A stretch of DNA of 52,290 nt from a virus (lineage: Duplodnaviria; Caudoviricetes): the IMG/VR virus record IMGVR_UViG_3300024259_000046, positions 1 to 52,290 of that record, one strand, 5' to 3'. The notes beneath the pieces were generated by a model that was not told the origin of the DNA, ran no database searches, and saw only the letters and a program-made list of their open reading frames with translations. This document shows, in pieces, positions 3,280-47,903 of this stretch. How positions within the stretch are numbered: the stretch's first letter is position 1; each line of letters starts with the position of its first letter. Both the position numbers and the translations under genes were made by a program.

Positions 3280-3425
3280 ACATTATCCTTTATGTTTTAA
3301 GGCTCTTAATTTGTTTTGGTATTTCAATAACAGGCCCGCTATTAAATTCCAGTCCCTAGATGGGCCGCATCTCAAATTAGCTCTATAATAATCAATTTGG
3401 GATTGGTAGAAGTCTTTTTTATTCA

Positions 3426-4094
3426 TTACTCTACATCCTGTACAAAGCCGGAATAGTCTTTCTTCGCTTTCCCTTTTGCAGTAAGCGCGACTATTCGATT
3501 CTTGGGATCGAGGAAGCGTAGGTCGTGATCATCCCCGTCAATAACTTTTATTCCATTCCACGTTTTCTTGGTGTACTTTTCACGAAAGACTACAGCAACG
3601 TTGAAACCTTTGTTGATGTAATACTTAACACAGTTGGGGGTGTTGTTTTTCCCATAGCTGAATGTTAAGTGATAGTTTTTCAGTTTCTTTTCTGACAGGT
3701 AAAGTTTCGAATAATCATAAAACTGAATGGTGGGAAATTTCTTGATAGTTGCTAGCCAGTTTAGATCGGACGTTCCGTTTAACCTGATTGCTACCTTCAT
3801 ACCTTTTTTCTGTGCAAGCTTGTCAAGGTTTGAAATCTCTTTGTGTAGTAAAGCAAGGAATAGGTCACGTTCTTCAAAATACATTTTTGTGCGTTTGATT
3901 CGTGCTTCTTGGGTCTTAGTAAATGCGCCTCGGCCAGCAGTGTTCAAGCATGCCGCTTCGCATCCCGCCTTCTTTGCCATTGGGCAAACATGATACCAGC
4001 TCGACTTTGCCGGGGCGAGGTGGAGGATACCTGTCAAGTATCCTTTGGCTTCACCCTTCATGGTTTTGGGGTTTGATACGGTTAGTAATCTCAT
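3426..4094 (-). CDS. GP88-like protein (radical-SAM-like Cys cluster)
   Basis: CPMAKKAGCEAACLNTAGRG, RLNGTSD, FYDYSK, DGDDHDLRFLD motifs. Confidence 0.75.
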   Translation of the reverse strand: MRLLTVSNPKTMKGEAKGYLTGILHLAPAKSSWYHVCPMAKKAGCEAACLNTAGRGAFTKTQEARIKRTKMYFEERDLFLALLHKEISNLDKLAQKKGMKVAIRLNGTSDLNWLATIKKFPTIQFYDYSKLYLSEKKLKNYHLTFSYGKNNTPNCVKYYINKGFNVAVVFREKYTKKTWNGIKVIDGDDHDLRFLDPKNRIVALTAKGKAKKDYSGFVQDVE

Positions 4095-4106
4095 TGTAAA
4101 TTCCTT

Positions 4107-4178
4107 TAGTAAAATGGCTAGTAAATCCGCTAGTAAACACGCTAGTAAACACGCTAGTAAACTAGCTAGTAAATTAGC
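4107..4178. repeat. Six tandem 12-bp repeats TAGTAAANNNGC
   Basis: Units at 4107, 4119, 4131, 4143, 4155, 4167, directly upstream of the GP88-like gene. Confidence 0.9.
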
Positions 4179-4272
4179 ATTTCACTACCAGATAGCATTG
4201 CCCTGTAAAACTCTATTGAAGTATAAAACATTCCTGAAACTGTGAATGTAACATTTAAAACTAAAGGAAAGC

Positions 4273-4298
4273 GGGAACCCCTATGCAAGCGGGTTCCC
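4273..4298 (-). terminator. Probable intrinsic terminator / hairpin
   Basis: GGGAACCC-10nt-GGGTTCCC with a U-rich run on the minus strand, after the 4317 gene. Confidence 0.5.
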
Positions 4299-4316
4299 TG
4301 TATTGCGGTTAGTATG

Positions 4317-5345
4317 TTAGGAGATTTCTATATACTCTGATTCTGAAATCTCAACTTGACGGGAATCAACCAATCCAGAATCTTGAACAGGTTGAGAATT
4401 GAGGAATTTGAATTTGCTAGGATATTTAATCCCGACTGGAAGGTTGAACAATCCGGCATCATTTAAGGGCCAATATAATTGACTTTGCAATTTTGCTTTT
4501 ACTTCGCTGGAATTTTGCTTTTCACCGAACAAGGTGCAAGCATTAAACAAACGATAAGCGGTTTGCTCTTCGTTGCGAAACCACGGATTTGACAAATCAT
4601 TATAGTAATTTGTAATTTCCTTAACATTAGAACCGGATAAGATATTATTCATTATCCCACTATGCATAAATTTTGCAACTTGTTCAGGGCTAACGGGGGT
4701 TTGTTGCATCTGAATTATATCGTTATTCAAACCGTTATAAACCTGACTAGCACTATTCAAACCACGAATAAGCATATCTCGAATATCGAGGTTTTTGGTA
4801 TGTTTGTGGGATACTTTGAAAAATTCAAAAGTCCCCGACATACCGTTTAAACATTGCAATTCCCAACCAAAAAGCGAAACATTGAACGCCCGCCTTTGAG
4901 CAACACTACCGGAAATGGATAAGGCATATTGCCCGTTACCTCTTGCCAGTGTTTGTAATTCCCTTTTTCCTTCAACCTCTTTATAGATATTAACAGGGAT
5001 TTCAAACTTATATTCTGTGTTACCTTTTCCCCAATGGGAAACACGACCAAAGGAACTAATTTCTGTTTCCCGGTCGTGCTTATCATCCCCGCCTAGTCTT
5101 TCAATATCAGTTGGCTGAATGATAATCTTGTTAGCATTTCCAAAGGGCGAATCAAGAAAAGCAAGACCGCCTTGGTCGTTTTCCTTAAAGACGTTTTGTA
5201 ACATTTCATTTACTTCCAAAGGTGTAACAATCTGGTGACGTTTACCCGGTTCAATGGTATCCGTTGAAACATTTAGATTTTCAAGGTCTTCAATATTTCT
5301 ACTTGTACGGGTTCCAGTGGTACGGGTTCTAGTGGTCGTTTCCAT
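4317..5345 (-). CDS. DUF932/DUF945-like protein
   Basis: ELQCLNGM and HKHTKN motifs, terminal TAYRLFNACT helix pattern. Confidence 0.55.
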   Translation of the reverse strand: METTTRTRTTGTRTSRNIEDLENLNVSTDTIEPGKRHQIVTPLEVNEMLQNVFKENDQGGLAFLDSPFGNANKIIIQPTDIERLGGDDKHDRETEISSFGRVSHWGKGNTEYKFEIPVNIYKEVEGKRELQTLARGNGQYALSISGSVAQRRAFNVSLFGWELQCLNGMSGTFEFFKVSHKHTKNLDIRDMLIRGLNSASQVYNGLNNDIIQMQQTPVSPEQVAKFMHSGIMNNILSGSNVKEITNYYNDLSNPWFRNEEQTAYRLFNACTLFGEKQNSSEVKAKLQSQLYWPLNDAGLFNLPVGIKYPSKFKFLNSQPVQDSGLVDSRQVEISESEYIEIS

Positions 5346-5384
5346 TTTGTTTTATCCTTCAATAGAATTTTACAGGGTTCGTTC

Positions 5385-5692
5385 TAATCTACTCAATAGA
5401 AGGAAGGAAAAGATTATAGAAATTCTAAACAGTTTGTTTTTGCGTTTCGATATTTCAATCCGGTACAGCCGTATGATTGCCCGATACTGTCTAAGGGTTC
5501 AAAACTCGAATCGTCGTCGCTATATCCTTCAAAATATAGTTCGTTATCATCATCATAAAGTCTGAAAAAATAAGGGAATTTGGATCTTTGTTCGGGGGTT
5601 ATTTTTACGGGGGTTTGTTCGTCTATTATGTTATGAGTTATTATAAACATGTTACCCCTTTGGGAAATTCCTTCCTTCTATAGAGTAGATTA
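5385..5692. repeat. 25-bp inverted repeat (24/25 identical) flanking a small ORF
   Basis: TAATCTACTCAATAGAAGGAAGGAA (5385-5409) versus TTCCTTCCTTCTATAGAGTAGATTA (5668-5692). Confidence 0.9.
5414..5650 (-). CDS. Hypothetical acidic protein
   Basis: 78-aa ORF, FRLYDDDNELYFEG motif, first gene of the leftward cluster. Confidence 0.65.
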   Translation of the reverse strand: MFIITHNIIDEQTPVKITPEQRSKFPYFFRLYDDDNELYFEGYSDDDSSFEPLDSIGQSYGCTGLKYRNAKTNCLEFL

Positions 5693-5955
5693 AAACGTTT
5701 GGTAATATAGGCCTTTCATGGCAGTCTTATAAACCGCTAACACCCATTCCAATAGCATCTAAAACGATTAGCCGTACAAACCTGTAACATCTCTAATCCA
5801 GAATCCCGCTATTGATAACACTTTCAGGCGGTTATAACCTTCTAATCGGCTCTTATGTTACAGCAAGGTCAAAGTCACCTATCAGGTACAAGGGCTGTAA
5901 CTCCGGTCTAACTTCCACGCCCTAACTCGCTTGCTTGCCTTCTATCCTTATATAA

Positions 5956-5972
5956 TGCAAACCACGTGCCAA
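5956..5972 (-). promoter_or_regulatory. sigma54 (RpoN) -24/-12 promoter facing the leftward gene cluster
   Basis: Minus strand TTGGCACGTGGTTTGCA matches consensus YTGGCACG-N4-TTGCW. Confidence 0.8.
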
Positions 5973-6023
5973 ACTCATAAACCCTTATAAAACAAGGGTT
6001 ATCGTTTTAAGCACCTGTGGAAA

Positions 6024-6355
6024 CGCTATAAAATGTAGCACTATTTCGTGCCTGTTTAGACACAGTGAAATAAATCCTTTGTTATCAACGACTTAACGTG
6101 CCTCAAAATGAAGCACCAGAAATGGTAAATGCTACAAAATGAAGCAAATTCAAAATATTGACAGGGGTGTATGAATTTTCATAACAAAGCGTCACAATAT
6201 TGACGATATTTATCTAAAATCATATACTTCAAAACATCCGATAAAATAAGATAAGAATATGATGGACTTTTTGACGGTGTATAGATTTAGATAAATGATA
6301 ATTACAAAATCATACACCTGTCTCAATATGAGACGACTTGTCTCAAAATGAGACG
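6024..6355. promoter_or_regulatory. Cluster of 16-17-bp palindromes (Fis/NtrC-family enhancer-like) plus an IHF-like site
   Basis: CGCTATAAAATGTAGCA 6024, TGCCTCAAAATGAAGCA 6099, TGCTACAAAATGAAGCA 6130, CGTCACAATATTGACG 6190, TGTCTCAATATGAGACG 6319, TGTCTCAAAATGAGACG 6339; TATCAACGACTTA 6083-6095 fits WATCAANNNNTTR. Confidence 0.6.
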
Positions 6356-6492
6356 CTCTTAAATGCCGTTGTTTAAACAAAGAATATTTTCTAAGGGTAA
6401 CATAAGGGGGCGATTTGAACCGAGCGAAATAAAGACACAGACGCTTAGAATCGACAAACTCACCTTATCACCTTATCACTATCACTATCGCT

Positions 6493-6622
6493 TTGGCATG
6501 ATTCGTGATAAAGCAATAATCGTGCCAAACCTATGACAGCTTATTGGTATGATACTTGCAAGGTGCAATACCTATGCCAGCTTATTGGTATGATAATTGC
6601 AGGGATGCAAGGGTCGTGCCTT
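6493..6622. promoter_or_regulatory. Six sigma54-type boxes in three head-to-head pairs
   Basis: +6493 (degenerate), -6512..6528, +6544..6560, -6564..6580, +6585..6601, -6606..6622; five have GG-N10-GC. Confidence 0.7.
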
Positions 6623-6762
6623 CATGGTGATATAGTTATGAAGTGAATTATCGTTTTTCCGATATAGCGACCCGGCCCCCCAAGCCCACCGCCCCATGCC
6701 AAATTTATATCTTTTGTATACGAAAATTTTGGAAATTCAAAAGGCACCCCCCTAAATAACTA

Positions 6763-6792
6763 TTGACCCACCCCCCTAAATTATGTTATCAT
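6763..6792 (+). promoter_or_regulatory. sigma70-type promoter
   Basis: TTGACC-18-TATCAT with extended TG. Confidence 0.5.
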
Positions 6793-6823
6793 CCAATAAC
6801 AATAATTTTTTGGGGCAACACAA

Positions 6824-7591
6824 ATGGAATTGATAAAAGACGGTGGGAGGATGTGTACAATGTCTCCCGAGGAGAGGTTCGATATAAAATATTCCGAGAA
6901 TTCTAATGGTTGCTGGGAGTGGCTCGGAAACATGAAAAACCATAGGACGGCCACTTTCATGGTTCGGGGAGAAAAATACCCCGCGTCTAAATTTTCTTAT
7001 GAGAGATTTGTCGGCCCAGTCCCAAAAGGTATGTTTATACAAAAAACATGCAATAACTCCCGGTGTGTTAACCCCAAACATTTGATTTTATCCCAATCTG
7101 CCACTGGGGGTAAAACACTGACCCACAAAATCCCGGAGTTTTGCCGAAGGGGTCATAAATATGAACCGGTTTACCGACCGCCGGGGTCGGGAAAAAACAG
7201 AGCGTGTAGAGAATGCCGAGCGGAAGATAAAAGAAACACAAAACAGCGCGCTCGGGTAAAGTATCTTTCTGAAACCCTGTCGAAATATAACAGTGTTAAC
7301 AAAATAACATCAGACAAATTATTAGAACATTCCGTTCAACTGGATGTGGGGCATTGTGTGTATTTTCTTTTCGACGACAGCGAAATTGTTTATATAGGCA
7401 GATCAGGGAATGGCCCCTTTAGGCGATTGGCAGACCATCTTATGAAGAAAAAAATGATCTTTGACAAGATGGCCTTCATATTATGCACTGAGAAGGAATC
7501 GTCTACAATCGAAGCGGCTTATATAAACGCCCACAACCCCAAGTATAACATAGCCAAGATAAATTTAGATTTTTTGCAAAAAAGTGCTTGA
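6824..7591 (+). CDS. Chimeric HNH-like/Zn-finger + GIY-YIG endonuclease
   Basis: CWEWLG...TCNNSRCVNPKHL; CRRGH...CRECR; VYFLF...VYIGRS...RLADH...E...NPKYN. Confidence 0.75.
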   Translation: MELIKDGGRMCTMSPEERFDIKYSENSNGCWEWLGNMKNHRTATFMVRGEKYPASKFSYERFVGPVPKGMFIQKTCNNSRCVNPKHLILSQSATGGKTLTHKIPEFCRRGHKYEPVYRPPGSGKNRACRECRAEDKRNTKQRARVKYLSETLSKYNSVNKITSDKLLEHSVQLDVGHCVYFLFDDSEIVYIGRSGNGPFRRLADHLMKKKMIFDKMAFILCTEKESSTIEAAYINAHNPKYNIAKINLDFLQKSA

Positions 7592-7616
7592 CACCCTATA
7601 GGGGGTAGTGTAGGAT
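7588..7616 (+). promoter_or_regulatory. sigma70 promoter of the tRNA operon
   Basis: TTGACA-17-TAGGAT, 15 nt before the first tRNA. Confidence 0.8.
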
Positions 7617-7631
7617 GGGTCTAGAAAATTT

Positions 7632-7706
7632 GCTCGTATCGTCTAACGACCAAGACACCTGTTTTGTAATCAGGTAATCAGGGTTTGATTCCTTGTATGA
7701 GCTCCA
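7632..7706 (+). tRNA. tRNA-Thr(UGU)
   Basis: Cloverleaf, loop ttTGTaa, encoded CCA. Confidence 0.85.
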
Positions 7707-7710
7707 ATTC

Positions 7711-7800
7711 GGAAGATTGACTGAGTCTGGCTTAAGGTTCCCGTTTTGAAAACGGATGGTGGTCAAACACCCGTGGGTTCGAATCCTACATCTTCCTCCA
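7711..7800 (+). tRNA. tRNA-Ser(UGA)
   Basis: Loop ttTGAaa, long variable arm, CCA. Confidence 0.92.
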
Positions 7801-7804
7801 ATTC

Positions 7805-7890
7805 GGTAGGTTGGCAGAGTGGTAATGCACCCGGTTGCTAACCGGCACGCCGTCAAAGGCGCAGAGGTTCGATCCCTCTACCTACCTCCA
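7805..7890 (+). tRNA. tRNA-Ser(GCU)
   Basis: Loop ttGCTaa, long variable arm, CCA. Confidence 0.92.
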
Positions 7891-7946
7891 TAAGAGAACC
7901 GTGGAACGGGACTGATAACCACATGAAAAACTAATCCCACATATTC

Positions 7947-8021
7947 GATGCTCTGGCTGATTGGTCAGGCACCAGCTTGCAAAGCTGGCACAACTCGGTT
8001 CGATTCCGAGGGGCATCTCCA
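7947..8021 (+). tRNA. tRNA-Cys(GCA)
   Basis: Loop ttGCAaa, U73, CCA. Confidence 0.9.
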
Positions 8022-8025
8022 ATAC

Positions 8026-8113
8026 GTAGTCTACGGGAATGGTTCCCAAGCCGGCTGTAACCCGGCGGCTTCCGAAAGGGGCACAGGTGGTTCGACTCCA
8101 TCCGGCTACACCA
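8026..8113 (+). tRNA. tRNA-Tyr(GUA)
   Basis: Loop ctGTAac, long variable arm, CCA. Confidence 0.88.
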
Positions 8114-8121
8114 ATTAGTTG

Positions 8122-8150
8122 TTGACAAGTGTTGACAACAAGAGTAGTAT
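8122..8150 (+). promoter_or_regulatory. Internal sigma70 promoter in the tRNA array
   Basis: TTGACA-17-TAGTAT, 16 nt before tRNA-Ala. Confidence 0.8.
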
Positions 8151-8166
8151 TAGTTTTAGAAATTAT

Positions 8167-8245
8167 GGGGCATGGGACTGCATGCGGTGGTCACTTGTTT
8201 TGCAATCAAGATATCAGCGGGGTTGGATTCCCTGATGCTCCACCA
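8167..8245 (+). tRNA. tRNA-Ala(UGC)
   Basis: G3:U70 pair, loop ttTGCaa, CCA. Confidence 0.85.
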
Positions 8246-8350
8246 ACGACTTTGACGGTAGTTTGATCGAAAACAATTTACGGAGCTTCTAGACAGACCG
8301 TAAAGAGACGCGCTAGCTTCGAATAGCGCCCCGATAAGGTAAAAAATTAT

Positions 8351-8424
8351 AGTCCTTTAGTTCAAAAGGAGAACGCCTGTTTTACAAGCAGGATACGAGG
8401 GAGCATTACCTTCAAGGACTACCA
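8351..8424 (+). tRNA. tRNA-Val(UAC), non-canonical T-loop
   Basis: Loop ttTACaa; T-loop AGCATTA; CCA. Confidence 0.82.
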
Positions 8425-8430
8425 TATCAA

Positions 8431-8500
8431 GGCCTCGCCGCGAACGGCTGAAAACCCTGACGAGGGGATAATCATGGTTCAATTCCATGAGAGGTTACAA
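8431..8500 (+). ncRNA. Degenerate tRNA-like RNA (possible Val-GAC relic)
   Basis: GGCCTC/GAGGTT stem, GCCG-CGAA-CGGC arm, ctGACga loop, CATGG-TTCAATT-CCATG T-arm; no CCA. Confidence 0.5.
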
Positions 8501-8503
8501 TAC

Positions 8504-8579
8504 AGAGTGAAAGCAATTGTGGTCAATGCACCTGCTTGAAACACAGGCCAATTCGGTTCGAAACCGGGTCACTCTACCA
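8504..8579 (+). tRNA. tRNA-Phe(GAA)
   Basis: Loop ttGAAac, CCA. Confidence 0.85.
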
Positions 8580-8649
8580 AAAAGCTGTGTGATGGGGTAG
8601 GTCCATCTTGGCGGTTACGGCTACGGCATAACCGGACGGACAAATTAAA

Positions 8650-8721
8650 GCGGCTGGTGTCTGGTGCTCACAGAGGTCTTCCAAACCACTAGTCAGGGTT
8701 CGATTCCCTGTTGCCGCTCCA
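8650..8721 (+). tRNA. tRNA-Gly(UCC)
   Basis: GCGGC acceptor, U73, loop ctTCCaa, CCA. Confidence 0.85.
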
Positions 8722-8728
8722 AGGAATA

Positions 8729-8802
8729 GGTCGAAAATGAGGGTTTCGAAACCCCTCTCCCGAGCAACAGTCTCGGGGTCGTCTAAAGGCAGGACGTCGG
8801 CC
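8729..8802 (+). ncRNA. Circularly permuted tRNA / YrlA-like Y RNA
   Basis: Order is T-arm, loop-closed acceptor stem, D-arm, all enclosed by GGTCGA/TCGGCC. Confidence 0.7.
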
Positions 8803-8810
8803 GCGATTAT

Positions 8811-8882
8811 GGTGTTTGTTCCTGAGTGGACTCTTCGGCTGTGACCCGAGGAGATTGGGGGCAGTACCCAACATTCACCCCA
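8811..8882 (+). tRNA. tRNA-His(GUG)
   Basis: G-1/C73, loop ctGTGac, CCA; atypical T-loop GGCAGTA. Confidence 0.8.
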
Positions 8883-8968
8883 ATTAGGTTGAGAAGCCGC
8901 TACCGGCGTCGTTGGCCCGAGTCGTTGCGTAGGCATCCGGAATCGGGTCATATTTTCAAGGCGAAGGC

Positions 8969-9085
8969 ATGCAGTATATTTTTTGGACATGCAAAAGGTG
9001 CGGTAAGAATGTTGGCCCTTGGGTCAAGTTTGTAGAATTTGTTTTTAATACACATCAGCATACGTGTATAAAGTTTCAACTATAG
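8969..9085 (+). CDS. 38-aa Cys/His peptide (possible Zn finger) inside the tRNA array
   Basis: MQYIFWTCKRCGKNVGPWVKFVEFVFNTHQHTCIKFQL; AAGGC upstream. Confidence 0.45.
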   Translation: MQYIFWTCKRCGKNVGPWVKFVEFVFNTHQHTCIKFQL

Positions 9086-9159
9086 TATTGTCGTCTAACT
9101 GGTAAGACGCCGGTCTGTTAAACCGGAAAATGTAGGTTCGAATCCTACTGATACTGCCA
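9084..9159 (+). tRNA. tRNA-Asn(GUU)
   Basis: Loop ctGTTaa, G73, CCA. Confidence 0.9.
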
Positions 9160-9168
9160 ATTCAGAGC

Positions 9169-9242
9169 GGGTCAATGGTGTAGTGGTAACATAGATGCCT
9201 CCAAACCATTTGACTGGGGTTCGATTCCTCGTTGGCCCGCCA
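9169..9242 (+). tRNA. tRNA-Trp(CCA)
   Basis: Loop ctCCAaa, G73, CCA. Confidence 0.85.
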
Positions 9243-9340
9243 GATATACTTGGGTAAGGGTCTACAAGTCGTGCGGTGATCACGTTAAAACGCCCGAGGG
9301 TGGTGCGGCGAACCTCGCAAAAAACCGCTCCCCAAATTAT

Positions 9341-9414
9341 TGCGGTGAGAATTGGTAATTCAACCACGGCTCATATCCGTGGCTCCGCGGGTTCAATTCC
9401 CGTCGCCGCTACCA
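9341..9414 (+). tRNA. tRNA-Met(CAU), initiator-like
   Basis: Loop ctCATat; U1.U72 mismatch, G2-C71, C3-G70, A73. Confidence 0.85.
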
Positions 9415-9417
9415 ACA

Positions 9418-9491
9418 TAGGGTGTAGTATTAATTAAATACGTTCGGGAAATCGAGTACCGGAAGATGTGGGCCAAACCCCTCCACCCCAG
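9418..9491 (+). ncRNA. tRNA-like cloverleaf with an 11-nt anticodon loop
   Basis: TAGGGTG/CACCCCA, GTAT/ATAC D-arm, TTCGG-GAAATCGAGTA-CCGGA, GTGGG/CCCTC T-arm. Confidence 0.55.
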
Positions 9492-9497
9492 AAATAC

Positions 9498-9571
9498 GGC
9501 TTTATAGCTTAATGTAAAGCACCATCCTGTCAAGATGGGAGACACGGTATCGATCACCGTTAAGGCCGCCA
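9498..9571 (+). tRNA. tRNA-Asp(GUC)
   Basis: Loop ctGTCaa, G73, CCA. Confidence 0.87.
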
Positions 9572-9631
9572 TACGCAATGCATTAGAGAGTTGGGCTGGC
9601 TCTAGTGGGCGAAACTGGTCCACCAAATTAA

Positions 9632-9705
9632 CGCGGTGTCTTCTAATGGCAAGAAACCCGGCCGATAACCGGGCAACGAAGGATCGATACCTTCCACTGC
9701 TACCA
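9632..9705 (+). tRNA. tRNA with GAU anticodon (Ile) on an initiator-like body
   Basis: Loop ccGATaa; acceptor CGCGGTG/CACTGCT-A; CCA. Confidence 0.82.
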
Positions 9706-9713
9706 AATAGTGA

Positions 9714-9792
9714 TGTTGGTTCGTTCAAAATGGACTAAGGATACTGGGCTTTGAACCCGGTGATGTGGGTTCGAGTCCCACACCGACTTCCA
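9714..9792 (+). tRNA. tRNA-Gln(UUG)
   Basis: Loop ctTTGaa, CCA. Confidence 0.88.
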
Positions 9793-9800
9793 AAATAAAT

Positions 9801-9877
9801 GCTCCTCTAGCCCAATTGGCAGAGGCACCCGGCTTAGACCCGGTCCAGTGAGGGTTCGAATCCTTCGGGGAGTACCA
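9801..9877 (+). tRNA. tRNA-Leu(UAG), short variable loop
   Basis: Loop ctTAGac, A73, CCA. Confidence 0.9.
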
Positions 9878-9881
9878 ATAC

Positions 9882-9958
9882 GCTCGTGTAGCCCAATTGG
9901 AAGAGGCGACTGGCTCAAACCCAGTTGGTTGAAGGTTCGAATCCTTCCATGAGTACCA
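9882..9958 (+). tRNA. tRNA-Leu(CAA), short variable loop
   Basis: Loop ctCAAac, CCA. Confidence 0.9.
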
Positions 9959-9959
9959 A

Positions 9960-10036
9960 GCTCTTCTAGCCCAACTGGTAGAGGCAGGCGCCTTAAAAGC
10001 GCCAAAGTGTAGGTTCGAATCCTACGAGGAGTACCA
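9960..10036 (+). tRNA. tRNA-Leu(UAA), short variable loop
   Basis: Loop ctTAAaa, CCA. Confidence 0.9.
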
Positions 10037-10042
10037 AATTAC

Positions 10043-10122
10043 GTCACTGTCTTCTAAACAAGGACTAGGAATCTGGGTTTTCACCCCGGACAATGCGGGT
10101 TCGAGCCCCGTCAATGACCCCA
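10043..10122 (+). tRNA. tRNA-Glu(UUC)
   Basis: Loop ttTTCac, CCA. Confidence 0.85.
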
Positions 10123-10128
10123 ATTAAC

Positions 10129-10204
10129 GCCCTGTTAGTTCAACTGAACAGAGCACTTGGCTACGAACCATGAAATGCGGGTTTGAATCCTGCACAGGGC
10201 TCCA
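10129..10204 (+). tRNA. tRNA-Arg(ACG)
   Basis: Loop ctACGaa, CCA. Confidence 0.88.
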
Positions 10205-10251
10205 AATTATGACAACTTCAACTCAAAAGACTAAACACGGCGACAAATTAT

Positions 10252-10328
10252 GCCTCCGTGGTGAAATTGCGTATCACATCGGTCTTTTAAACCGTAAGTT
10301 GCAGGTTCGAGTCCTGTCGGGGGCACCA
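10252..10328 (+). tRNA. tRNA-Lys(UUU)
   Basis: Loop ctTTTaa, CCA. Confidence 0.88.
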
Positions 10329-10345
10329 ATAGCTTAAGGAGACGA

Positions 10346-10420
10346 CCTCCTGTAGCTCAATGGCAGTAGCACCGGCCTTATAAGCCGGCGACCTTGGATC
10401 GTAACCAAGCAGGAGTACCA
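10346..10420 (+). tRNA. tRNA-Ile(UAU)
   Basis: CCGGC-ctTATaa-GCCGG; C1.U72; T-loop ATCGTAA; CCA. Confidence 0.82.
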
Positions 10421-10426
10421 AATTAC

Positions 10427-10502
10427 GCCCTGTTAGTTCAACTGAACAGAGCACCGGGTTTCTACCCCGGGGATACGGGTTTGAATCCTGTACAGGGCCC
10501 CA
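10427..10502 (+). tRNA. tRNA-Arg(UCU)
   Basis: Loop ttTCTac, CCA; 5' 28 nt identical to tRNA-Arg(ACG). Confidence 0.88.
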
Positions 10503-10508
10503 TAATAA

Positions 10509-10586
10509 CTGTGAGTAAGTCAGTCTGGCCAGACGACCCGCTTTGGAAGCGGGGGGACGCAGGTTCGAATCCTGCCTCGCAGACCA
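10509..10586 (+). tRNA. tRNA-Pro(UGG)
   Basis: C1-G72, A73, loop ttTGGaa, CCA. Confidence 0.9.
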
Positions 10587-10593
10587 ATTCGTC

Positions 10594-10758
10594 ATGAAGA
10601 CAATTCCAATAAACCATGTCCTTAACCAAATGCAGTCTAAACGCTTTCACACCAAAGTGAAAGCTGATAAAACGAAGTACGACCGAAAGAGGGAGAAAAG
10701 GCATGAAGAACGCGATGGAAGTTATTCGCAAGGCAAAGATTATAGATCATCCCACTAA
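10594..10758 (+). CDS. Small basic protein, ArfA-like pattern
   Basis: INHVLNQMQSKRFHTKVKADKTKYDRKREKRH. Confidence 0.45.
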   Translation: MKTIPINHVLNQMQSKRFHTKVKADKTKYDRKREKRHEERDGSYSQGKDYRSSH

Positions 10759-11413
10759 AACGGATGCGTACGAATTCAAAATCTGCGTAATGGGCTTTGG
10801 TCCGTCTAACGCGGAAGCCCCACTGGATGATCCAAGCTGGAAAAAGTTTGGGCTCCCGTGGGATGACAAATGGGAGAAGTTCGATAATCTCTACGAAATG
10901 CATGAACAGAATGTCATGCAACTTTCGAACGCACTGGTGCTCACCGAAGAGTGGACCGGCGAACGAATTGAAACACAAGCCCACCGACCACAGAATTACC
11001 TCAAGATTTTAGATCAGATCACAAAAGACCCAGATAAAACCCTATATATGCAGGAAGCGTACTTCCCCGGGGTATTGGCGTACCCGTTCGAGAAAGTCAT
11101 AGCGAACACCAGAGATTATTTTATTTCCTCAATAACTTACATGCTCTCTCACGCTATTTCTATGAACCCAACACATCTCGCGTTGTACGGCATTGACCTG
11201 ATGCCAGACGAGGAATGGGACTACCAACGCGCTTGCGTTGAGTATTTACTGGGGGTTGCAGAGGGTAGGGGCATCAAAGTGACTATCCCAGACGGTTCAG
11301 CGCTGTTAAAGTTTCAACCGCAACTGGTCCGGTTTGGCGCTATTTTTATTGAATACCATGAAAGATATGGTATACTGGGACCGAAACCTCAAAAATTTCA
11401 AAGGTGGCTATGA
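10703..11413 (+). CDS. Conserved phage protein, possible sialyltransferase/MptE-like Rossmann fold
   Basis: VMGFGPS, SSITYMLSHA, LALYGIDL, EWDYQRACVEY motifs. Confidence 0.45.
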   Translation: MKNAMEVIRKAKIIDHPTKTDAYEFKICVMGFGPSNAEAPLDDPSWKKFGLPWDDKWEKFDNLYEMHEQNVMQLSNALVLTEEWTGERIETQAHRPQNYLKILDQITKDPDKTLYMQEAYFPGVLAYPFEKVIANTRDYFISSITYMLSHAISMNPTHLALYGIDLMPDEEWDYQRACVEYLLGVAEGRGIKVTIPDGSALLKFQPQLVRFGAIFIEYHERYGILGPKPQKFQRWL

Positions 11414-11961
11414 CGGAAGAGACTGTATTTGGGGAAATCCCCATTCAAGGTCCAGTGGCCCCTACGGTAAAACGTAAGGCTGGAAGACCAAGAGGATCAA
11501 AAGGTAAAAAACCAAAGTTTGAACCAACCGAGGAACAAAGACATCTGGTTAATATGATGTCTACTTCCGGGGTTAAACAGGTCGACCAAGCCAAGGCTCT
11601 TGGGATTCACGAACATACCCTCCGGAAGTTTTTCAGACAAGAACTGGACCACGGCAAAGTGGTGTGCACCAGCCATGTGGTAGGCGCTTTGTACAATAAC
11701 GCCGTCGTTAAAGGGAATGTGACGGCTCAAATTTTCTGGTTGAAGTCACAGGCGGGCTGGCGGGAAGCTGACCGACTGGAGCTCACGGGCGCTAATGGTA
11801 AGAGCCTTGAGAACTTGACTGATACTGACAAGGAACAACGCATCATGAATGCCATGATGAAGGCTAAAGGGATACTCCCAAGAAATATTGAACCAATAGA
11901 GGTTGCGAATGTGGATTCTGGTATTCATCCAATTAACCCTAGCACCGTACCCGCAGGTTGA
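11410..11961 (+). CDS. terS: Terminase small subunit
   Basis: HTH (QAKALGIHEHTLRKFF), GNVTAQIFWLK; upstream of TerL. Confidence 0.75.
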   Translation: MTEETVFGEIPIQGPVAPTVKRKAGRPRGSKGKKPKFEPTEEQRHLVNMMSTSGVKQVDQAKALGIHEHTLRKFFRQELDHGKVVCTSHVVGALYNNAVVKGNVTAQIFWLKSQAGWREADRLELTGANGKSLENLTDTDKEQRIMNAMMKAKGILPRNIEPIEVANVDSGIHPINPSTVPAG

Positions 11962-12112
11962 GCAGTTGATTTTTTCTCCCCAACCATATTACAGTGAAGA
12001 ATCATGTATTATGGAAGTGAGAAAAATAGTTCAGACAGAACGGGCGGAAGGCCGCGAAATACCTAAGACAATGTTCATGACTTGCGAACCTTTCCCGAAA
12101 CGAGGAGTTTAG
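11903..12112 (+). CDS. Small secreted/membrane protein
   Basis: Hydrophobic N-terminus, two Cys. Confidence 0.5.
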   Translation: MRMWILVFIQLTLAPYPQVEQLIFSPQPYYSEESCIMEVRKIVQTERAEGREIPKTMFMTCEPFPKRGV

Positions 12113-12153
12113 ATGGCGAATTTAACACACGGGATGAGGCGGTAGCATAATAT

Positions 12154-13746
12154 ATGGTTGAATTGGAAAATTTGCTGGAGCAGTATAACTCACTGCCCCC
12201 AGCGGAAAAGGCAGAAATTGATCACATGCTTCTGGATGATGCCAATGAAGTACCTTGGCGTCCCCTGATAAACGTAAAAAATCCAGAACAGATCACCCCT
12301 CAAAAACAGGCGTATGATTCCCTCGCCGACATATTACTTTTCGGGGGTGCGGCTGGAGGGGGGAAATCAAGTCTGATGATTGGGCTGGCTTTAACGGCCC
12401 ACAAACGTTCTGTAATTTACAGGCGTGAAGTCAAACAACTGGGACCATTCGAAGATGAAATCATCAGAATCAGAAAAACCAGAGTCGGGTTCAACGGCCA
12501 ATTACATCGCTTTGATTTGGGTAAAGACCGGGGAATTCGCTTGGGTGGGATGCAATACGCGGGAGATGAGATCGCTTACATGGGAGACCCCCGTGATCTT
12601 ATTTGTTTCGATGAATTAACACAATTTTTGGAGTCACAATTTCGTTTTGTTACAACATGGAATAGAACAACCGATCCGAACCAACGCTGTCGAATTGTCT
12701 GTGCTACCAACCCTCCGACTACCGCAGAGGGGCAGTGGGTTATCGACTATTGGGCTCCGTGGCTTGATCGAGAGCATCCAAACCCAGCTAGGCCGGGTGA
12801 GTTACGTTGGTTCATCAGTGACGAAGACGGTAAAGACAAAGAAGTAGAAGGTGGGGAACCAATTTGGATGGGGAATGACTGGGTTCAGCCCCGGTCAAGA
12901 ACATTTATCCCGTCCTGTATTGACGATAATCCGTTCTTGATCAATTCTGGATACAAAGCGGCTCTTCAAGCGCTTCCAGAGCCTCTAAGATCGCAGATGC
13001 TGATGGGGGACTTCTCCGCCGGAGTCAGAGACGACCCGTGGCAGGTTATTCCTACCGCATGGATCGAGGCCGCTCAAGAACGTTGGACAGAAAGCCCGCC
13101 AAAAGGGGCGAAAATGGACACTCTCGGTACCGATCCGGCGCGAGGCGGAGAAGACGACTTCGTAATGACGCCGAGATATGGCAATTGGGTTGGTGAACAA
13201 ATAGTTTTACCGGGCTGTTCGACACCAGACGGCCCTTCCGGAGCCGCGATATGTACAACGTACGTCAGAGATGGCGCACAAATCATGCTGGACATCATCG
13301 GTGGCGCCGGTGCATCAATATTTGACCACTTAAGAGGGAATGGGATAAATGTCCATGCCATAGACGGTAGAAAGAAGTCATTCGAACGCGACGAATCGGG
13401 CTCATTAGAGTTTTTCAACGAAAGAAGTATGATGTGGTGGCGGGCGCGAGAGGCGTTGAACCCTGCGAACCCCGTCAAGCTGGCAATACCACCAAGCCGT
13501 GCCATGAAAACGGATTTAACGGCCCCCAAGTGGCAATTAACGACCCGGGGCATCCAAGTTGAAGGTAAATCGACCGAATGTAAGGACGGGTTCGGCGATT
13601 TGAAGAAAAGACTCGGCAGATCGCCGGACAAAGGTGATTCCTTCGTCTATTGTCTCCCTAAAGCGAAAAAACGGCTTGGGTTTGGCGCGCAGATGCCAAC
13701 AAGGACAAATTCGAAGTATAGACCCCAAAGGGGTATGATGAGATGA
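12154..13746 (+). CDS. terL: Terminase large subunit
   Basis: Walker A GGAAGGGKS, Walker B FDELTQF, ATNP, nuclease GTDPARGGEDD and RSPDKGD. Confidence 0.95.
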   Translation: MVELENLLEQYNSLPPAEKAEIDHMLLDDANEVPWRPLINVKNPEQITPQKQAYDSLADILLFGGAAGGGKSSLMIGLALTAHKRSVIYRREVKQLGPFEDEIIRIRKTRVGFNGQLHRFDLGKDRGIRLGGMQYAGDEIAYMGDPRDLICFDELTQFLESQFRFVTTWNRTTDPNQRCRIVCATNPPTTAEGQWVIDYWAPWLDREHPNPARPGELRWFISDEDGKDKEVEGGEPIWMGNDWVQPRSRTFIPSCIDDNPFLINSGYKAALQALPEPLRSQMLMGDFSAGVRDDPWQVIPTAWIEAAQERWTESPPKGAKMDTLGTDPARGGEDDFVMTPRYGNWVGEQIVLPGCSTPDGPSGAAICTTYVRDGAQIMLDIIGGAGASIFDHLRGNGINVHAIDGRKKSFERDESGSLEFFNERSMMWWRAREALNPANPVKLAIPPSRAMKTDLTAPKWQLTTRGIQVEGKSTECKDGFGDLKKRLGRSPDKGDSFVYCLPKAKKRLGFGAQMPTRTNSKYRPQRGMMR

Positions 13747-34937: not shown

Positions 34938-35116
34938 CCACACTATGGAGTATCTTCCTATTCACACACGACATAATTTTCCACGGTGCAGTGGCCGGGG
35001 CAGTCAGCGGTGTGTTCTGGTTTGGCACGATCTTTGCACGGAAAGCGTGGGGGCTACTACTGGTAGAAATACCGGCGGTAACATTATACATTCTTAGAGT
35101 ACTGGAGGGGCAATGA
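34892..35116 (+). CDS. 74-aa three-TM membrane protein with probable AUU start (holin candidate)
   Basis: No ATG/GTG/TTG between the in-frame stop at 34838 and ATT 34892; AGGAAATAAGGCG before ATT; TGA overlaps the endolysin ATG. Confidence 0.55.
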   Translation: MRTYQIIFIECLASITTLWSIFLFTHDIIFHGAVAGAVSGVFWFGTIFARKAWGLLLVEIPAVTLYILRVLEGQ

Positions 35117-40691: not shown

Positions 40692-41522
40692 ATGATATTC
40701 CTAAACAAAGAACCTGTAGAGACACACAAATTCAGCGGCGGAGAATGCCATGTCAAACTCCCCGTTCCTTATCATAAAGAAGAAGCACACATCGACGCAT
40801 GTCTGTATAACTCCGATGATATTATGTCGTTGATGATGACTGTAGATGCGCTTCGACAGATCAATGGAATGATGAAGATCAATGTCACCATACCTTACTT
40901 CCCCTACGCTAGACAGGACAGGGTGTGTGAACCCGGCGAAGCTTTCAGCTTAAAAGTAATGGCTGACCTGATCAACTCTCTTAAGGTGGACAGCGTGGTA
41001 GTCATTGACCCGCACTCCAAAATGACACCGAGTCTTTTAGATAACTGTATGGTGTATGATCAACATGCTTGTGTTACAACACACATGTGGCACATGCTAC
41101 GTAACACAGACACCACACTTGTAGCACCTGATGAAGGCGCAAAAGAGAAGACTTTAAATTTGGCCTGTGATTTGGGCGTAGATTATATCACCTGCACAAA
41201 AGTCAGAGACACCAAGACCGGTGATATAACTAAAACATATGTCCCGCAAGGTAACCCGACTAGGAACTACATGATCATCGATGATATATGTGATGGGGGG
41301 AGAACTTTCATAAATATCGCAAATATTCTAATGGAAGATGGCGTACCAAGAAAAAACTTGTCTTTGTACGTGACCCATGGTATATTTTCGAACGGCTTTG
41401 CAGAACTGGTAAGCCGATTTGAAAAACTTTATTGTTATCATCTGTTCCCGAACGTGGATACACACACCTTACCGTTCGGTTACTTAACCGTATTCAAGGG
41501 AGAAAAAAGCTATGTTCATTGA
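40692..41522 (+). CDS. Ribose-phosphate pyrophosphokinase-like enzyme (Adps-like)
   Basis: FSGGE, PYFPYARQDR, DPHS, APDEGA, IIDDICDGGRTF, VTHGIFS. Confidence 0.9.
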   Translation: MIFLNKEPVETHKFSGGECHVKLPVPYHKEEAHIDACLYNSDDIMSLMMTVDALRQINGMMKINVTIPYFPYARQDRVCEPGEAFSLKVMADLINSLKVDSVVVIDPHSKMTPSLLDNCMVYDQHACVTTHMWHMLRNTDTTLVAPDEGAKEKTLNLACDLGVDYITCTKVRDTKTGDITKTYVPQGNPTRNYMIIDDICDGGRTFINIANILMEDGVPRKNLSLYVTHGIFSNGFAELVSRFEKLYCYHLFPNVDTHTLPFGYLTVFKGEKSYVH

Positions 41523-42990
41523 CCCATTTGCGTGTACAGATTTCTATAAGATAGGCCACATCAAACAGTACCCCAAACGTACTGAAATGGTTTACTCCAA
41601 TATGACTGCGCGGGATAGTTCTCACGCCAACACTATCTTCGGTGATAAGTTTGTAATCAACTTCGGATTGCAGTATGTTATCCAGAAGTTCTTGGTGGAA
41701 GACTGGAACCAGAACTTCTTCGACCGACCGGAAGAGGAAGTTGTCGCCCGGTACGAACGACGTATCAGTGCTACTCTGGGTGAGCCTCATGCAGATTCCA
41801 CCCATGTACGGGCCTTACACAAGCTCGGTTACCTGCCTATCCTGATAAAGGCTCTACCCGAGGGGGCAAGAGTACCTGTTGGGGTTCCTCTGTTCACCAT
41901 TCAAAACACCGAGCCCGAGTTCTTCTGGTTGACCAACTTCTTAGAGACAGCGTTGTCCGGCTTCTTGTGGAAGCCCATAACTTCTGCAACAATGGCTTAT
42001 GAATACCGCAGACTGTTTGATCAGTATGCAGAGGAGACAGGTGGGGACAAAGAGTTCGTTCCTTTCCAAGGGCACGACTTCTCCTTCCGTGGTATGTCCA
42101 ACGTGGAAGACGCCGCGTTAAGCGGAGCCGCTCACTTGACAAGCTTCGTAGGGACTGACTCTATCATTGCTATCGACCTACTGGAACAATACTATCAAGC
42201 TGATGTCACCAAAGGTTTAGTCGGGTGTTCTGTGCCGGCCACGGAGCATTCTGTAATGTGCATGGGCGGTGAGTTGGACGAGAAGGCTACGTTCGAACGC
42301 CTGATCGGTGAGTTGTACCCCGCTGGTATCGTTTCCATTGTGTCTGACACTTGGGACTTCTGGAAAGTTGTCACCGAAACTCTGCCGGAATTGAAGTACA
42401 AAATTCTGGAGCGTGATGGTAAACTTGTCATCAGACCAGACAGCGGCGACCCGGTTAATATTATTTGTGGTGATCTTGGCGCGAAAAGAGGAAGCCCAGA
42501 ATTTAAGGGGTTGATCGAATGTCTTTGGGATACCTTCGGAGGGGAGACAAACGAGAAGGGTTATAAGAAACTAGACTATCACATAGGAGCCATCTACGGT
42601 GACGCTATCAATCTGGTACGGGCCGAAGATATTATGCGCAGGTTAGCGGACAAAGGATTTACTTCCGACAACGTTGTGTTAGGTATTGGTTCCTTTACAT
42701 ACCAGTACGTGACGAGAGACACACATGGGTTTGCTATTAAATCTACCGCCGGGCAGTTGGACGGTGAAATTGTAGAGATATTCAAAGACCCGAAGACAGA
42801 CAGTGGTATTAAGAAGTCCGCCAAGGGTCTACTGCGTGTGTCTAAGAACCAGCAACGGAAGTATGAACTGCACGATCAACAAACACCAGACGAAGAGAAG
42901 GAAGGTGAGTTGAAGACCGTGTTTATTAACGGCGAACCCTTCAACCGCTGGTCTCTTGAAGATATCAGGGAGCGTATCGCTAATGGTTAA
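41512..42990 (+). CDS. Nicotinamide phosphoribosyltransferase-like enzyme (Namat-like)
   Basis: TDFYKIGH, HDFSFRG, SVPATEHS, SIVSDTWD, VIRPDSGDP, KKSAKG. Confidence 0.93.
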   Translation: MFIDPFACTDFYKIGHIKQYPKRTEMVYSNMTARDSSHANTIFGDKFVINFGLQYVIQKFLVEDWNQNFFDRPEEEVVARYERRISATLGEPHADSTHVRALHKLGYLPILIKALPEGARVPVGVPLFTIQNTEPEFFWLTNFLETALSGFLWKPITSATMAYEYRRLFDQYAEETGGDKEFVPFQGHDFSFRGMSNVEDAALSGAAHLTSFVGTDSIIAIDLLEQYYQADVTKGLVGCSVPATEHSVMCMGGELDEKATFERLIGELYPAGIVSIVSDTWDFWKVVTETLPELKYKILERDGKLVIRPDSGDPVNIICGDLGAKRGSPEFKGLIECLWDTFGGETNEKGYKKLDYHIGAIYGDAINLVRAEDIMRRLADKGFTSDNVVLGIGSFTYQYVTRDTHGFAIKSTAGQLDGEIVEIFKDPKTDSGIKKSAKGLLRVSKNQQRKYELHDQQTPDEEKEGELKTVFINGEPFNRWSLEDIRERIANG

Positions 42991-46514: not shown

Positions 46515-47903
46515 ATGTCAAGGCGAACGATGGCAGACATGCACAAATACCAGTGGACTATGATCGACTGGGTACTGAACAACCCCAAGTGCGCTCTATG
46601 GGCGGGCGTGGGGCTAGGCAAGACTGTTGTCGCACTCTCCGCAATCAACACCCTGTTGTTGCGTAAGACCATCAACAAAGTTCTAATCGTTGCACCTTTG
46701 AGGGTCGCCACTAACGTGTGGCCCTCAGAGATCAACGCTTGGGAGCATCTTAAGCACTTACGTTCCGCTCTTATTCGTGGGACGCCAGCGCAACGCAAAG
46801 AACAACTCAACTCCAGTGCAGAAATTCATCTTATTAACAAAGAACTTCTACCGTGGTTGATCGACGAATGTTCTGATCGGAACGAATGGCCTTATGACCT
46901 TACCGTTCTCGATGACTCGTCTGCGCGCAATTCCAAAACAAAACGTTTCAAATCTCTTCGTATGGTCAGGCCGCACATGCCCCGTCTTGTCGAGTTGAAC
47001 GCCACACCCGCACCCAATGGACTGCTTAACTTGTGGGGACCGATGTTCCTTATCGACGGTGGAGAACGACTGGGCCGGACAATGACTTCTTATAAGAGAG
47101 CATATTTCGATGCCGATTATATGGGGTTCAATTTCACCTTAAAGCCGGGAGCGAGTGATGACATTTACACAGCGGTGCAGGACAGGTGCTTATCCCTTAC
47201 TAGTAACGATCATTTGGATTTACCCCCTTGCAACCATAACATTATTCCTCTGGTAATGGAGCCCGGTGTAAAAGAACAATACAAAGAACTCGAACGAGAA
47301 TTTGTATTAGAACTTGAAACTGGGTTAATCACTGCATCACAGGCGGCGGTGTTGAGCAACAAGTTGATCCAATTTTGTAGTGGGGCGGTTTACACCGAGC
47401 CTGATATATGGACTACCGTTCATAACCAAAAGATGGAAGCACTCAAGGAACTGGTTGACGAAATGGCGGGACAGCCATTGCTCATTGCTTATAACTATAG
47501 GCATGAGTTAGATCGTCTCCGTTCCGAGTTCCCCAGTGGCCGTGTCCTAGACACGAAGCAAGACGAAGATGATTGGAACGCGGGCTCTGTCCCACTGATG
47601 TTCGTTCATCCACAATCTTGCGGCCACGGGTTAAATTTGCAATATGGGGGTTGCAATTTGGTTTGGTATAGTTTAACGTGGAACCTTGAACTGTTCGATC
47701 AGTTGATTGGACGGCTCGACAGGCAGGGGCAGACGAAACCTGTATTTGTTCACATGTTTATTTTTGATGACACGATTGAAGCATTAATGGTACGAAGATT
47801 GCAGGATAAGTCAGTGACGCAGGACGAATTATTAACTGCTATGAAAGAGGAACACAAATTTAAACTGAACCCGGAGTTACTGGCAACACAACCTTTCATA
47901 TAG
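46515..47903 (+). CDS. SNF2-family helicase
   Basis: GLGKT, VAPLRVA, ATP, GHGLNLQ, RLDRQGQ. Confidence 0.92.
   Translation: MSRRTMADMHKYQWTMIDWVLNNPKCALWAGVGLGKTVVALSAINTLLLRKTINKVLIVAPLRVATNVWPSEINAWEHLKHLRSALIRGTPAQRKEQLNSSAEIHLINKELLPWLIDECSDRNEWPYDLTVLDDSSARNSKTKRFKSLRMVRPHMPRLVELNATPAPNGLLNLWGPMFLIDGGERLGRTMTSYKRAYFDADYMGFNFTLKPGASDDIYTAVQDRCLSLTSNDHLDLPPCNHNIIPLVMEPGVKEQYKELEREFVLELETGLITASQAAVLSNKLIQFCSGAVYTEPDIWTTVHNQKMEALKELVDEMAGQPLLIAYNYRHELDRLRSEFPSGRVLDTKQDEDDWNAGSVPLMFVHPQSCGHGLNLQYGGCNLVWYSLTWNLELFDQLIGRLDRQGQTKPVFVHMFIFDDTIEALMVRRLQDKSVTQDELLTAMKEEHKFKLNPELLATQPFI

Follow-up and report, generated by a model that had tools for sequence, protein, structure and literature searches.

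Genome Setting and Distribution

The window, by which we mean the whole stretch of DNA analyzed, is a complete 52,290-bp virus record in IMG/VR (CheckV 100%). Its structural genes encode a T7-type portal, the small and large terminase subunits, a capsid protein, and large virion proteins, and its replication module comprises a DUF2800 nuclease, an Enc34-type SSB, a family A polymerase, an SNF2 helicase, and a primase-helicase. Further genes encode RtcB, an RNA ligase, NAMPT, and a PRPP-synthetase-like protein, the last two lying side by side as a possible NAD salvage pair. Together with RtcB and the RNA ligase, the 20 tRNA genes of the window (Table 1) suggest a toolkit against host tRNA-cleaving defenses. 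The ends of the record fall in a 15-bp pentapeptide-repeat array and the primase region, with ~20 copies of the 15-bp repeat at 51960–52267 and 1–20 and a pentapeptide-repeat protein that runs off the 3′ end. Were the record circular, the 3′-open frame at 51935–52288 would be in phase with the primase frame opening at base 2. The record ends look like an assembly break rather than a terminus.

The phage is present in many seawater metagenomes, with 20 DNA runs and no RNA run among the listed sequencing runs that contain the region. Contigs from four runs cover the region and show no differences, and positions 6127–7031 are identical in contigs of other seawater runs. In one seawater run, an extra 6-nt unit occurs after position 6473, within short direct repeats that abut the array described below, indicating copy-number variation within the population. 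Among cultured phages, we found no DNA similarity to positions 5600–7000, and the terminase and portal region returned only distant matches (Bordetella phage BPP-1 and Pelagibacter podophages), which do not single out a host. A search of bacterial genomes for the conserved core sequence adjoining the array gave 23 matches, none of them with a TerS or TerL match (21 of the 23 loci have a GC content of 58–76%), and bacterial genomes searched via RtcB likewise yielded no relative, neither route leading to a host. The GC content of related loci spans 0.31 to 0.47, which suggests that they infect different hosts.

Organization of the Divergent Control Region

Nearly all genes in the window are transcribed in the forward direction, the only exception being a leftward operon that is separated from the rightward genes by 1.2 kb of non-coding DNA (5651–6823; 38% GC). 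The features of this region, along with others discussed here, are collected in Table 1.

Table 1. Coordinates of the array, its surroundings, and other features of the window.
Feature	Position	Strand	Remarks
Leftward operon	3283–5650	−	78-aa protein, 342-aa DUF932-like protein, GP88-family protein, small ORFs; content varies between relatives
12-bp tandem repeat (~5 copies)	4107–4174		Flanked by the GP88-family gene and the 342-aa gene
Solitary perfect sigma-54 box (11/11)	5956–5971	−	~290 nt ahead of the leftward operon; also conserved in 8 other related loci
Three 17-bp palindromes	6024–6040, 6099–6115, 6130–6146	.	Family also seen twice in relative R1; candidate activator/operator sites
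Terminator-like hairpin	6052–6037	−	Between the array and the leftward operon
Candidate IHF-consensus-like site	6083–6095	+	Between the solitary box and the palindromes; weak (2 matches vs. 0.29 expected in 3.5 kb)
Two GTCA-N6-TGAC-type boxes	6150–6162 (imperfect), 6191–6204	.	Motif amplified into type B arrays
Two perfect 15-bp palindromes, 20 bp apart	6320–6354	.	Candidate activator/operator sites
Short direct repeats	6457–6492	+	Abut the array
Palindrome 1	6493–6529	.	+ half-box 6494–6509 (−24 element only) facing perfect − sigma-54 box 6512–6527
Palindrome 2	6544–6580	.	+ box 6545–6560 (9/11) facing − box 6564–6579 (10/11)
Palindrome 3	6585–6622	.	+ box 6586–6601 (9/11) facing − box 6606–6621 (10/11)
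Tandem duplication (41 bp)	6522–6603	+	6522–6562 / 6563–6603, 88% identical; source of palindromes 2 and 3
GC-rich core	6667–6703	+	Best conserved non-coding element of the phage family
Sigma-70-like promoter of the rightward operon	6745–6792	+	TTGACC-18-TATCAT with TG; flanked by two 13-nt direct repeats; −10 region conserved in the family
HNH endonuclease (HNH_3-type) gene	6824–7591	+	First rightward gene; missing at this place in most relatives
20 tRNA genes	7632–10586	+	Between the control region and the terminase genes
236-aa protein gene	10703–11413	+	Homologue only in R1 (78% identical)
Terminase genes	11404–13746	+	Small 11404–11961; large 12154–13746
Solitary perfect sigma-54 box	35023–35038	+	Within a 175-bp gap; amidase (lysis) gene 75 nt downstream
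PRPP-synthetase-like and NAMPT genes	40692–42990		Adjacent
Sigma-54-like box (10/11)	47788–47803	+	Within the 3′ end of the SNF2 helicase gene; rtcB 110 nt downstream
RtcB gene	47914–49164
RNA ligase gene	49402–50082

In the leftward operon, the 342-aa protein displayed a weak DUF932 match, and its AlphaFold model (pLDDT 68) gave no PDB fold match at an E-value of 0.001 or better. A pattern search found no relatives of this protein in viral contigs, and its profile returned no PDB sequence match. Across the related phages it is divergent (27–49% identity), the closest version (48%) being that of the relative L178. The leftward operon, with its differing gene content, is a variable cassette of the kind that anti-defense or early regions often are.

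On the rightward side, the HNH_3-type gene that follows the core is probably a mobile insertion; a gene of this type also follows the core in the L057 locus (about 1810–2100), not in the other relatives. The 236-aa protein is a member of a viral family that has no Pfam domain, and it looks like an enzyme of that family (nearest named cluster MptE-like, score 0.82, which we treat as a lead only).

Several further elements lie between the leftward operon and the array. Five palindromes and the two GTCA-N6-TGAC boxes are found at distances of 55–520 bp from sigma-54 boxes. A SypG-type upstream activating sequence was considered for the 15-bp palindromes and rejected, given the pattern matched 10 times in total against 10.7 expected. 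Likenesses of the nearby palindromes to FleQ, SypG, and LuxO sites are treated as leads only. A search of Rfam with positions 5500–6900 returned nothing above threshold. No sigma-54 or enhancer-binding ATPase domain was detected in the 27 window ORFs of at least 170 aa, and activation of any sigma-54 promoter in this phage would therefore need a host protein.

Three Head-to-Head Pairs of Sigma-54 Boxes

The array itself (6493–6622) consists of three imperfect palindromes of 37–38 bp, each built from a box on the + strand and a box on the − strand whose −12 ends face one another. The preliminary description of this DNA had reported six sigma-54 boxes in three head-to-head pairs, and our analysis places all three pairs where they had been reported, with gaps of 2, 3, and 4 bp between the paired boxes. 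The boxes it had given as examples are also present, and the − strand box of palindrome 1, taken with its flanking T, is the perfect consensus it had quoted. The count of six sigma-54 boxes holds for five arms, which keep the GG-N10-GC frame and 9–10 of the 11 consensus bases each; in the remaining arm, the first + strand box, the −24 half is present and GTGAT stands in place of the expected TTGCA. Given that palindromes 2 and 3 derive from the 41-bp tandem duplication, these two pairs are not independent of each other. The center of palindrome 2 additionally reads TTGCA-N3-TGCAA, a LuxO-type motif occurring once in the window (0.08 expected) and not conserved in R1. With regard to neighboring genes, the − strand boxes point to the leftward operon 850–950 bp away, past the terminator-like hairpin, and the + strand boxes point to the HNH gene 220–280 bp away.

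The number of boxes is far above expectation. The strict pattern TGGYAY-N5-TTGCW matches seven times in the window, compared to a mean of 0.20 over 100 shuffled sequences, none of which reached seven, and four of the seven matches fall in 6512–6601; allowing one mismatch in TGGCAC-N5-TTGCW gives eight matches against 1.49 expected. These counts exclude a chance origin of the boxes.

The shape of the motif was assessed in three ways. In a logo of 18 boxes, information content is highest at GG, A, and TGC and drops to ~0.1 bit directly outside the box, and the flanking TT and the G after CAC fit the extended consensus even though they were not used in selecting the boxes. Between the two arms of the three window palindromes, 26 of 33 consensus positions are the same, compared to 6 of 15 spacer positions (Fisher p 0.019), indicating constraint on the sigma-54 contacts rather than on hairpin pairing, although the logo and the arm statistics are partly circular, since resemblance to the consensus was the basis for choosing the boxes. 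In an alignment of the solitary box at 5956–5971 and its counterparts (6 loci), the invariant columns read TTTGGCA.G....TTGC, and the spacer and flanks vary. Conservation thus follows the bipartite motif, not the spacer or flanks, in all three comparisons, with the same proviso that the boxes are consensus-chosen. By our own estimate, an arbitrary iteron would match all 11–13 sigma-54 consensus positions by chance with a probability of ~1e-6, which argues that the boxes owe their identity as sigma-54 elements to either selection or descent.

Solitary Sigma-54 Boxes Elsewhere in the Genome and Family

Sigma-54 boxes are not confined to the array. Including the window, nine loci carry the box at 5956–5971, its counterparts lying in L061, L213, L063, L176, L182, and L193, plus L057 and L067, and L067 has an additional rightward box, followed after ~35 nt by a ribosome-binding site and start codon. 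Within the window, the amidase gene and rtcB are each preceded by one further, co-oriented box; a look upstream of these boxes revealed no palindrome. The rtcBA operon of enterobacteria depends on sigma-54 through RtcR, and by analogy the phage rtcB may keep the sigma-54 logic of rtcBA. Judged from the position and conservation of these boxes, the phage family clearly appears to use sigma-54 promoters productively outside the array.

An Expanded Array in a Relative

The closest counterpart of the array is found in a relative we refer to as R1; the locus L055 and the metagenome loci L189 and L224 carry its sequence identically and are treated here as a single phage. Among 20 loci found through TerL, strict boxes occur in four, with nine in L055 and one each in L061, L063, and L067. 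The nine in R1 compare with 0.03 expected, and none occurs elsewhere in its 28.7-kb record. At a threshold of at least 9/11, the R1 array comprises 12 boxes in alternating orientation with ~40-bp spacing, all within 500 bp to the left of the core. These 12 near-perfect boxes lie at the homologous place. A search with the exact box variant matched 53 viral contigs once each, of which 52 look like chance and one (L031) is again R1.

The window and R1 share their array type and differ in leftward genes. The 342-aa protein is absent from R1, where the first leftward gene is SprT-like, not DUF932-like (6906–7709, + strand, in L189), and the homologue of the 236-aa protein is the first gene after the core. 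The multiplication of boxes in R1, the solitary promoter conserved in the family, and the agreement of the palindrome arms at contact positions together uphold the earlier assignment of the boxes as sigma-54-type elements and indicate that they are not chance occurrences.

A Hypervariable Slot beside a Conserved Core

In phages whose TerL is 72–80% identical, the slot to the left of the core holds at least eight unrelated repeat types. Type A, the sigma-54 boxes, is limited to the window and R1. Type B (L061, L063, L176, L182, L193, L213, and L247) consists of 6–9 abutting GTCA-N6-TGAC palindromes, L063 having nine compared to 0.04 expected, and type C (L141, L142, L242, and L260) of CGTTATG-N10-CATAACG palindromes. 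Type D/F (L178, L201, L256, and L206) consists of TTTGGCATTAAAA..TTTTAATGCCAAA palindromes, which have only their TTTGGCAY outer arms in common with the window palindromes and lack the −12 TTGC; TTGGCA sites number 8–9 in L178 and six in L256. Type G (L246), the only non-palindromic array type seen, is a 9-nt direct repeat of ~20 copies located about 300–110 nt left of the core, and types H and I (L057 and L067) are further unrelated repeats. Several of the slot types are without any sigma-54 features.

The solitary sigma-54 promoter accompanies slot types A, B, H, and I, and was not found in types C, D/F, and G. Two GTCA-N6-TGAC boxes are kept near this promoter in the window and in L057. Amplification in the slot appears to act on cis-elements already present in the control region, namely sigma-54 boxes in type A and GTCA-N6-TGAC boxes in type B.

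Next to this variable slot, at a distance of 54–180 bp from the array, lies the core, a C-rich sequence whose 28 bp (with G-runs on the − strand) are nearly invariant across ~20 loci. Searching with the core recovered five related viral loci and ~20 related metagenome loci among the 124 occurrences examined, the rest being GC-rich chance matches. To the right of the core lies an AT-rich stretch followed by the sigma-70-like promoter, and terS starts 100–150 bp after the core in most relatives; in the window, the HNH gene, the tRNA array, and the 236-aa gene are inserted between the two. By its sequence conservation and position, the core is inferred to be a candidate cos, pac, or terminus site; contigs do not display molecule ends. 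A link between the array and a genome end is plausible but unproven.

The proximity of terS raises the question of whether TerS reads the arrays. Between types B and C, TerS is 78–83% identical, including its helix-turn-helix stretch, and within type B it is 83–84% identical; between the window and R1, it is only 61% identical despite their common array type. TerS conservation therefore does not follow array type, which speaks against TerS as the protein that reads the arrays. The primase is 51% identical to that of the type B relatives, with too few genomes for an analysis of its co-variation with array type.

Possible Roles of the Array

We tentatively favor the reading that the array is an activator-gated, two-way promoter bank built from genuine sigma-54 holoenzyme sites, while rating it at somewhat below an even chance. 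The sequences show the match to the consensus, the enrichment, the conservation, and the pattern of constraint, whereas binding, firing, the activator, and a position at a genome end are what we infer. The boxes would have multiplied as inverted pairs in the fast-evolving repeat slot of the main divergent control region, which would itself be of the sigma-54/enhancer type, given its solitary leftward promoter, palindromes at enhancer-like distances, and IHF-like site. The holoenzyme would dock on the boxes as stable closed complexes and, because the paired boxes are only 2–4 bp apart, each palindrome would accept a single polymerase at any moment, facing one way or the other. Release of these complexes would then fall to a host enhancer-binding ATPase at the nearby palindromes, with the leftward boxes (the better ones) supplementing the leftward operon's conserved promoter and the rightward boxes reading toward the core and the HNH/tRNA/terminase operon. 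Sigma-54 use elsewhere in the family and the phage precedent of YuA (see below) count in favor of this promoter bank. The type B phages also lend it some support, as their slot boxes and retained solitary sigma-54 promoter would by analogy amount to a promoter-with-enhancer layout. Against it, head-to-head boxes this close together must interfere with each other, a terminator-like hairpin stands toward the leftward operon, and transcription of the rightward operon is already provided for by a conserved sigma-70-type promoter. The hypervariability of the slot is, moreover, the pattern that would be expected of sites co-evolving with a phage protein.

That last point is central to a reading we consider possible, if unlikely, in which the palindromes are iterons or operators for a fast-evolving phage DNA-binding protein, such as a replication initiator or early-region regulator. 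Host sigma-54 would then be irrelevant to array function, and the sigma-54 look would derive from an amplified older sigma-54 promoter or from a common TTTGGCAY half-site. The eight or more different, mostly palindromic multi-copy repeat types by the core are typical of cognate protein–site pairs, TTTGGCAY arms recur in type D/F arrays that lack the −12 element, and the divergent 342-aa neighbor is closest to that of L178, whose array has TTTGGCAY arms too. The array region is also AT-rich and intergenic, as replication origins often are. However, neither a cognate protein nor an initiator was found in our analysis, the 342-aa protein being the only positional candidate, one with no informative fold and missing from R1, and TerS is ruled out by its conservation. 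A chance match to the full sigma-54 consensus is improbable by the estimate above, conservation between the arms tracks the sigma-54 contact positions, and, considering that the type A phages differ in both leftward genes and TerS, a host reader is the simpler account of their common boxes. The same TerS comparison bears on whether the palindromes are recognized as cosB- or pac-like sites by the small terminase, the alternative reader named in the preliminary description. The array does adjoin the conserved GC-rich core just upstream of terS, as do the terminase-binding repeats of lambda and SPP1, but the DNA-binding region of TerS does not co-vary with the site, and we regard this as the least probable of the readings considered. 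Hardly more probable is that the palindromes act as hairpins in + strand RNA or single-stranded DNA (a leader, priming signal, or hairpin promoter) with an incidental likeness to sigma-54 boxes. In its favor, the + strand RNA of 6480–6640 folds at −55.7 kcal/mol (z −4.1) compared to −37.9 (z −1.6) for the − strand, and the arms give seven G.T pairs on the + strand against one A.C pair. Several of these G.T pairs are nevertheless common by descent through the 41-bp duplication, in R1 there is no difference in folding between the strands (z −7.6 and −7.8), which is what an inverted DNA repeat of any kind would give, and complementarity is lost at the spacer and kept at the sigma-54 positions; Rfam gave no match, and the strand asymmetry that a structured RNA would be expected to keep is seen in the window and not in R1.

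If the sites are indeed bound by the sigma-54 holoenzyme, they may still not fire, acting instead as a sink, a roadblock, or a nucleoprotein cap by the packaging/terminus core, a reading we judge unlikely and place behind that of iterons. Sites multiplying with genome replication would titrate the small cellular pool of sigma-54. The boxes are dense, alternating, and overlapping, making them ill-suited to productive initiation, R1 packs 12 of them at its ~40-bp spacing, and the array lies beside the conserved core, possibly a genome end. Stable closed complexes awaiting an activator are established sigma-54 biology (see also the abstract of PMC3844500), and the 6–9 FleQ-consensus-like palindromes in the sister phages exceed the usual need for enhancers, which is consistent with a transcription-factor sponge. 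On the other hand, the 20-bp spacing in the window would let at most three polymerases bind at once, a poor sponge, and such sites more often serve to regulate a phage's own genes in cis, a use to which the family seems to put sigma-54 promoters elsewhere. No result separates occupancy from firing. The preliminary description had proposed a role of this kind, as an RpoN decoy, polymerase trap, or anchor; none of our results supports a decoy or trap, and the slots of sister phages hold other palindromes, some lacking sigma-54 features. A broader version, in which the slot is a swappable sponge for host transcription factors (the sigma-54 holoenzyme in the window and R1, a FleQ-type regulator in other relatives), appears to us a little more doubtful still. 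Were it true, hundreds to thousands of sites would shut down the host sigma-54 regulon (motility, RNA repair, and membrane stress) with no phage protein involved, and relatives would swap specificity by amplifying different cis-elements.

Comparison with Known Systems

The layout of the array has several partial precedents. Origin iterons of lambdoid phages and the satellite phage P4 are phage-specific, often dyad-symmetric sites in AT-rich non-coding DNA that differ between close relatives. The array shares this layout and differs in carrying a full host sigma-54 logo and in that no cognate initiator was found. In lambda cosB and SPP1 pac, terminase-binding repeats lie beside a conserved site just upstream of terS, a position like that of the array, whereas TerS conservation here does not track array type. 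The T7 early promoters A1–A3, which lie at the leading end of the genome, are of the sigma-70 type and run in tandem with a common orientation. The likeness to the present phage, a podophage with a T7-type portal, is in host-polymerase promoters bunched at a probable genome end; the array boxes differ in being sigma-54 type and head-to-head, at a genome end that is here proposed from conservation and position. Cellular sigma-54 promoters, unlike the boxes of the array, are not known to occur in head-to-head pairs. To our knowledge, few phage promoters are of the sigma-54 type, and these depend without exception on an ATPase activator from the host.

Among phages, the nearest parallel is the Pseudomonas phage YuA, for which reliance on sigma-54 as well as sigma-70 has been reported (Ceyssens et al. 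2008, as cited in the relevant part of PMC10914365). As depicted there, YuA is a lytic phage without its own RNA polymerase that uses host sigma-54 beside sigma-70, and the solitary boxes at 5956 (−), 35023 (+), and 47788 (+) are of that kind. The promoters described in that part are single; here, five to six boxes (12 in R1) alternate within 130–500 bp. We found no description of sigma-54 box arrays in phages in the literature searched.

A bacterial parallel is qrr1 of Vibrio fischeri, a sigma-54 promoter with upstream SypG and LuxO sites (PMC10162802, in excerpt). The control region resembles qrr1, as portrayed in that excerpt, in its −24/−12 boxes, dyad-symmetric sites 60–400 bp away, and a candidate IHF site, and differs in that no activator is phage-encoded and the SypG and LuxO motif likenesses are not significant. 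The FleQ boxes of Pseudomonas, given as GTCaNTAAAtTGAC and GTCAaAAAAtTGAC in the excerpted text of PMC6120874, provide a comparison for the type B sisters, which carry 6–9 boxes fitting this consensus along with the conserved sigma-54 promoter; the window keeps two. This is a resemblance only; the same excerpt calls the FleQ motif unreliable as a genome-wide predictor.

Implications for the Phage Family

The wider finding is a hypervariable palindrome-array slot by a conserved core upstream of terS in an abundant seawater podophage family. This slot constitutes a natural series of swapped cis-elements (sigma-54 boxes, FleQ-like boxes, and other palindromes) that can be compared side by side. 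If the promoter bank is real, the main control region of the phage would tie its gene expression to a specific host signaling state; should the sites stay silent, the phage would possess an anti-host device made of nothing but DNA and directed at a low-copy sigma factor. The array suggests an unusual way of plugging phage gene control into the host regulatory system.
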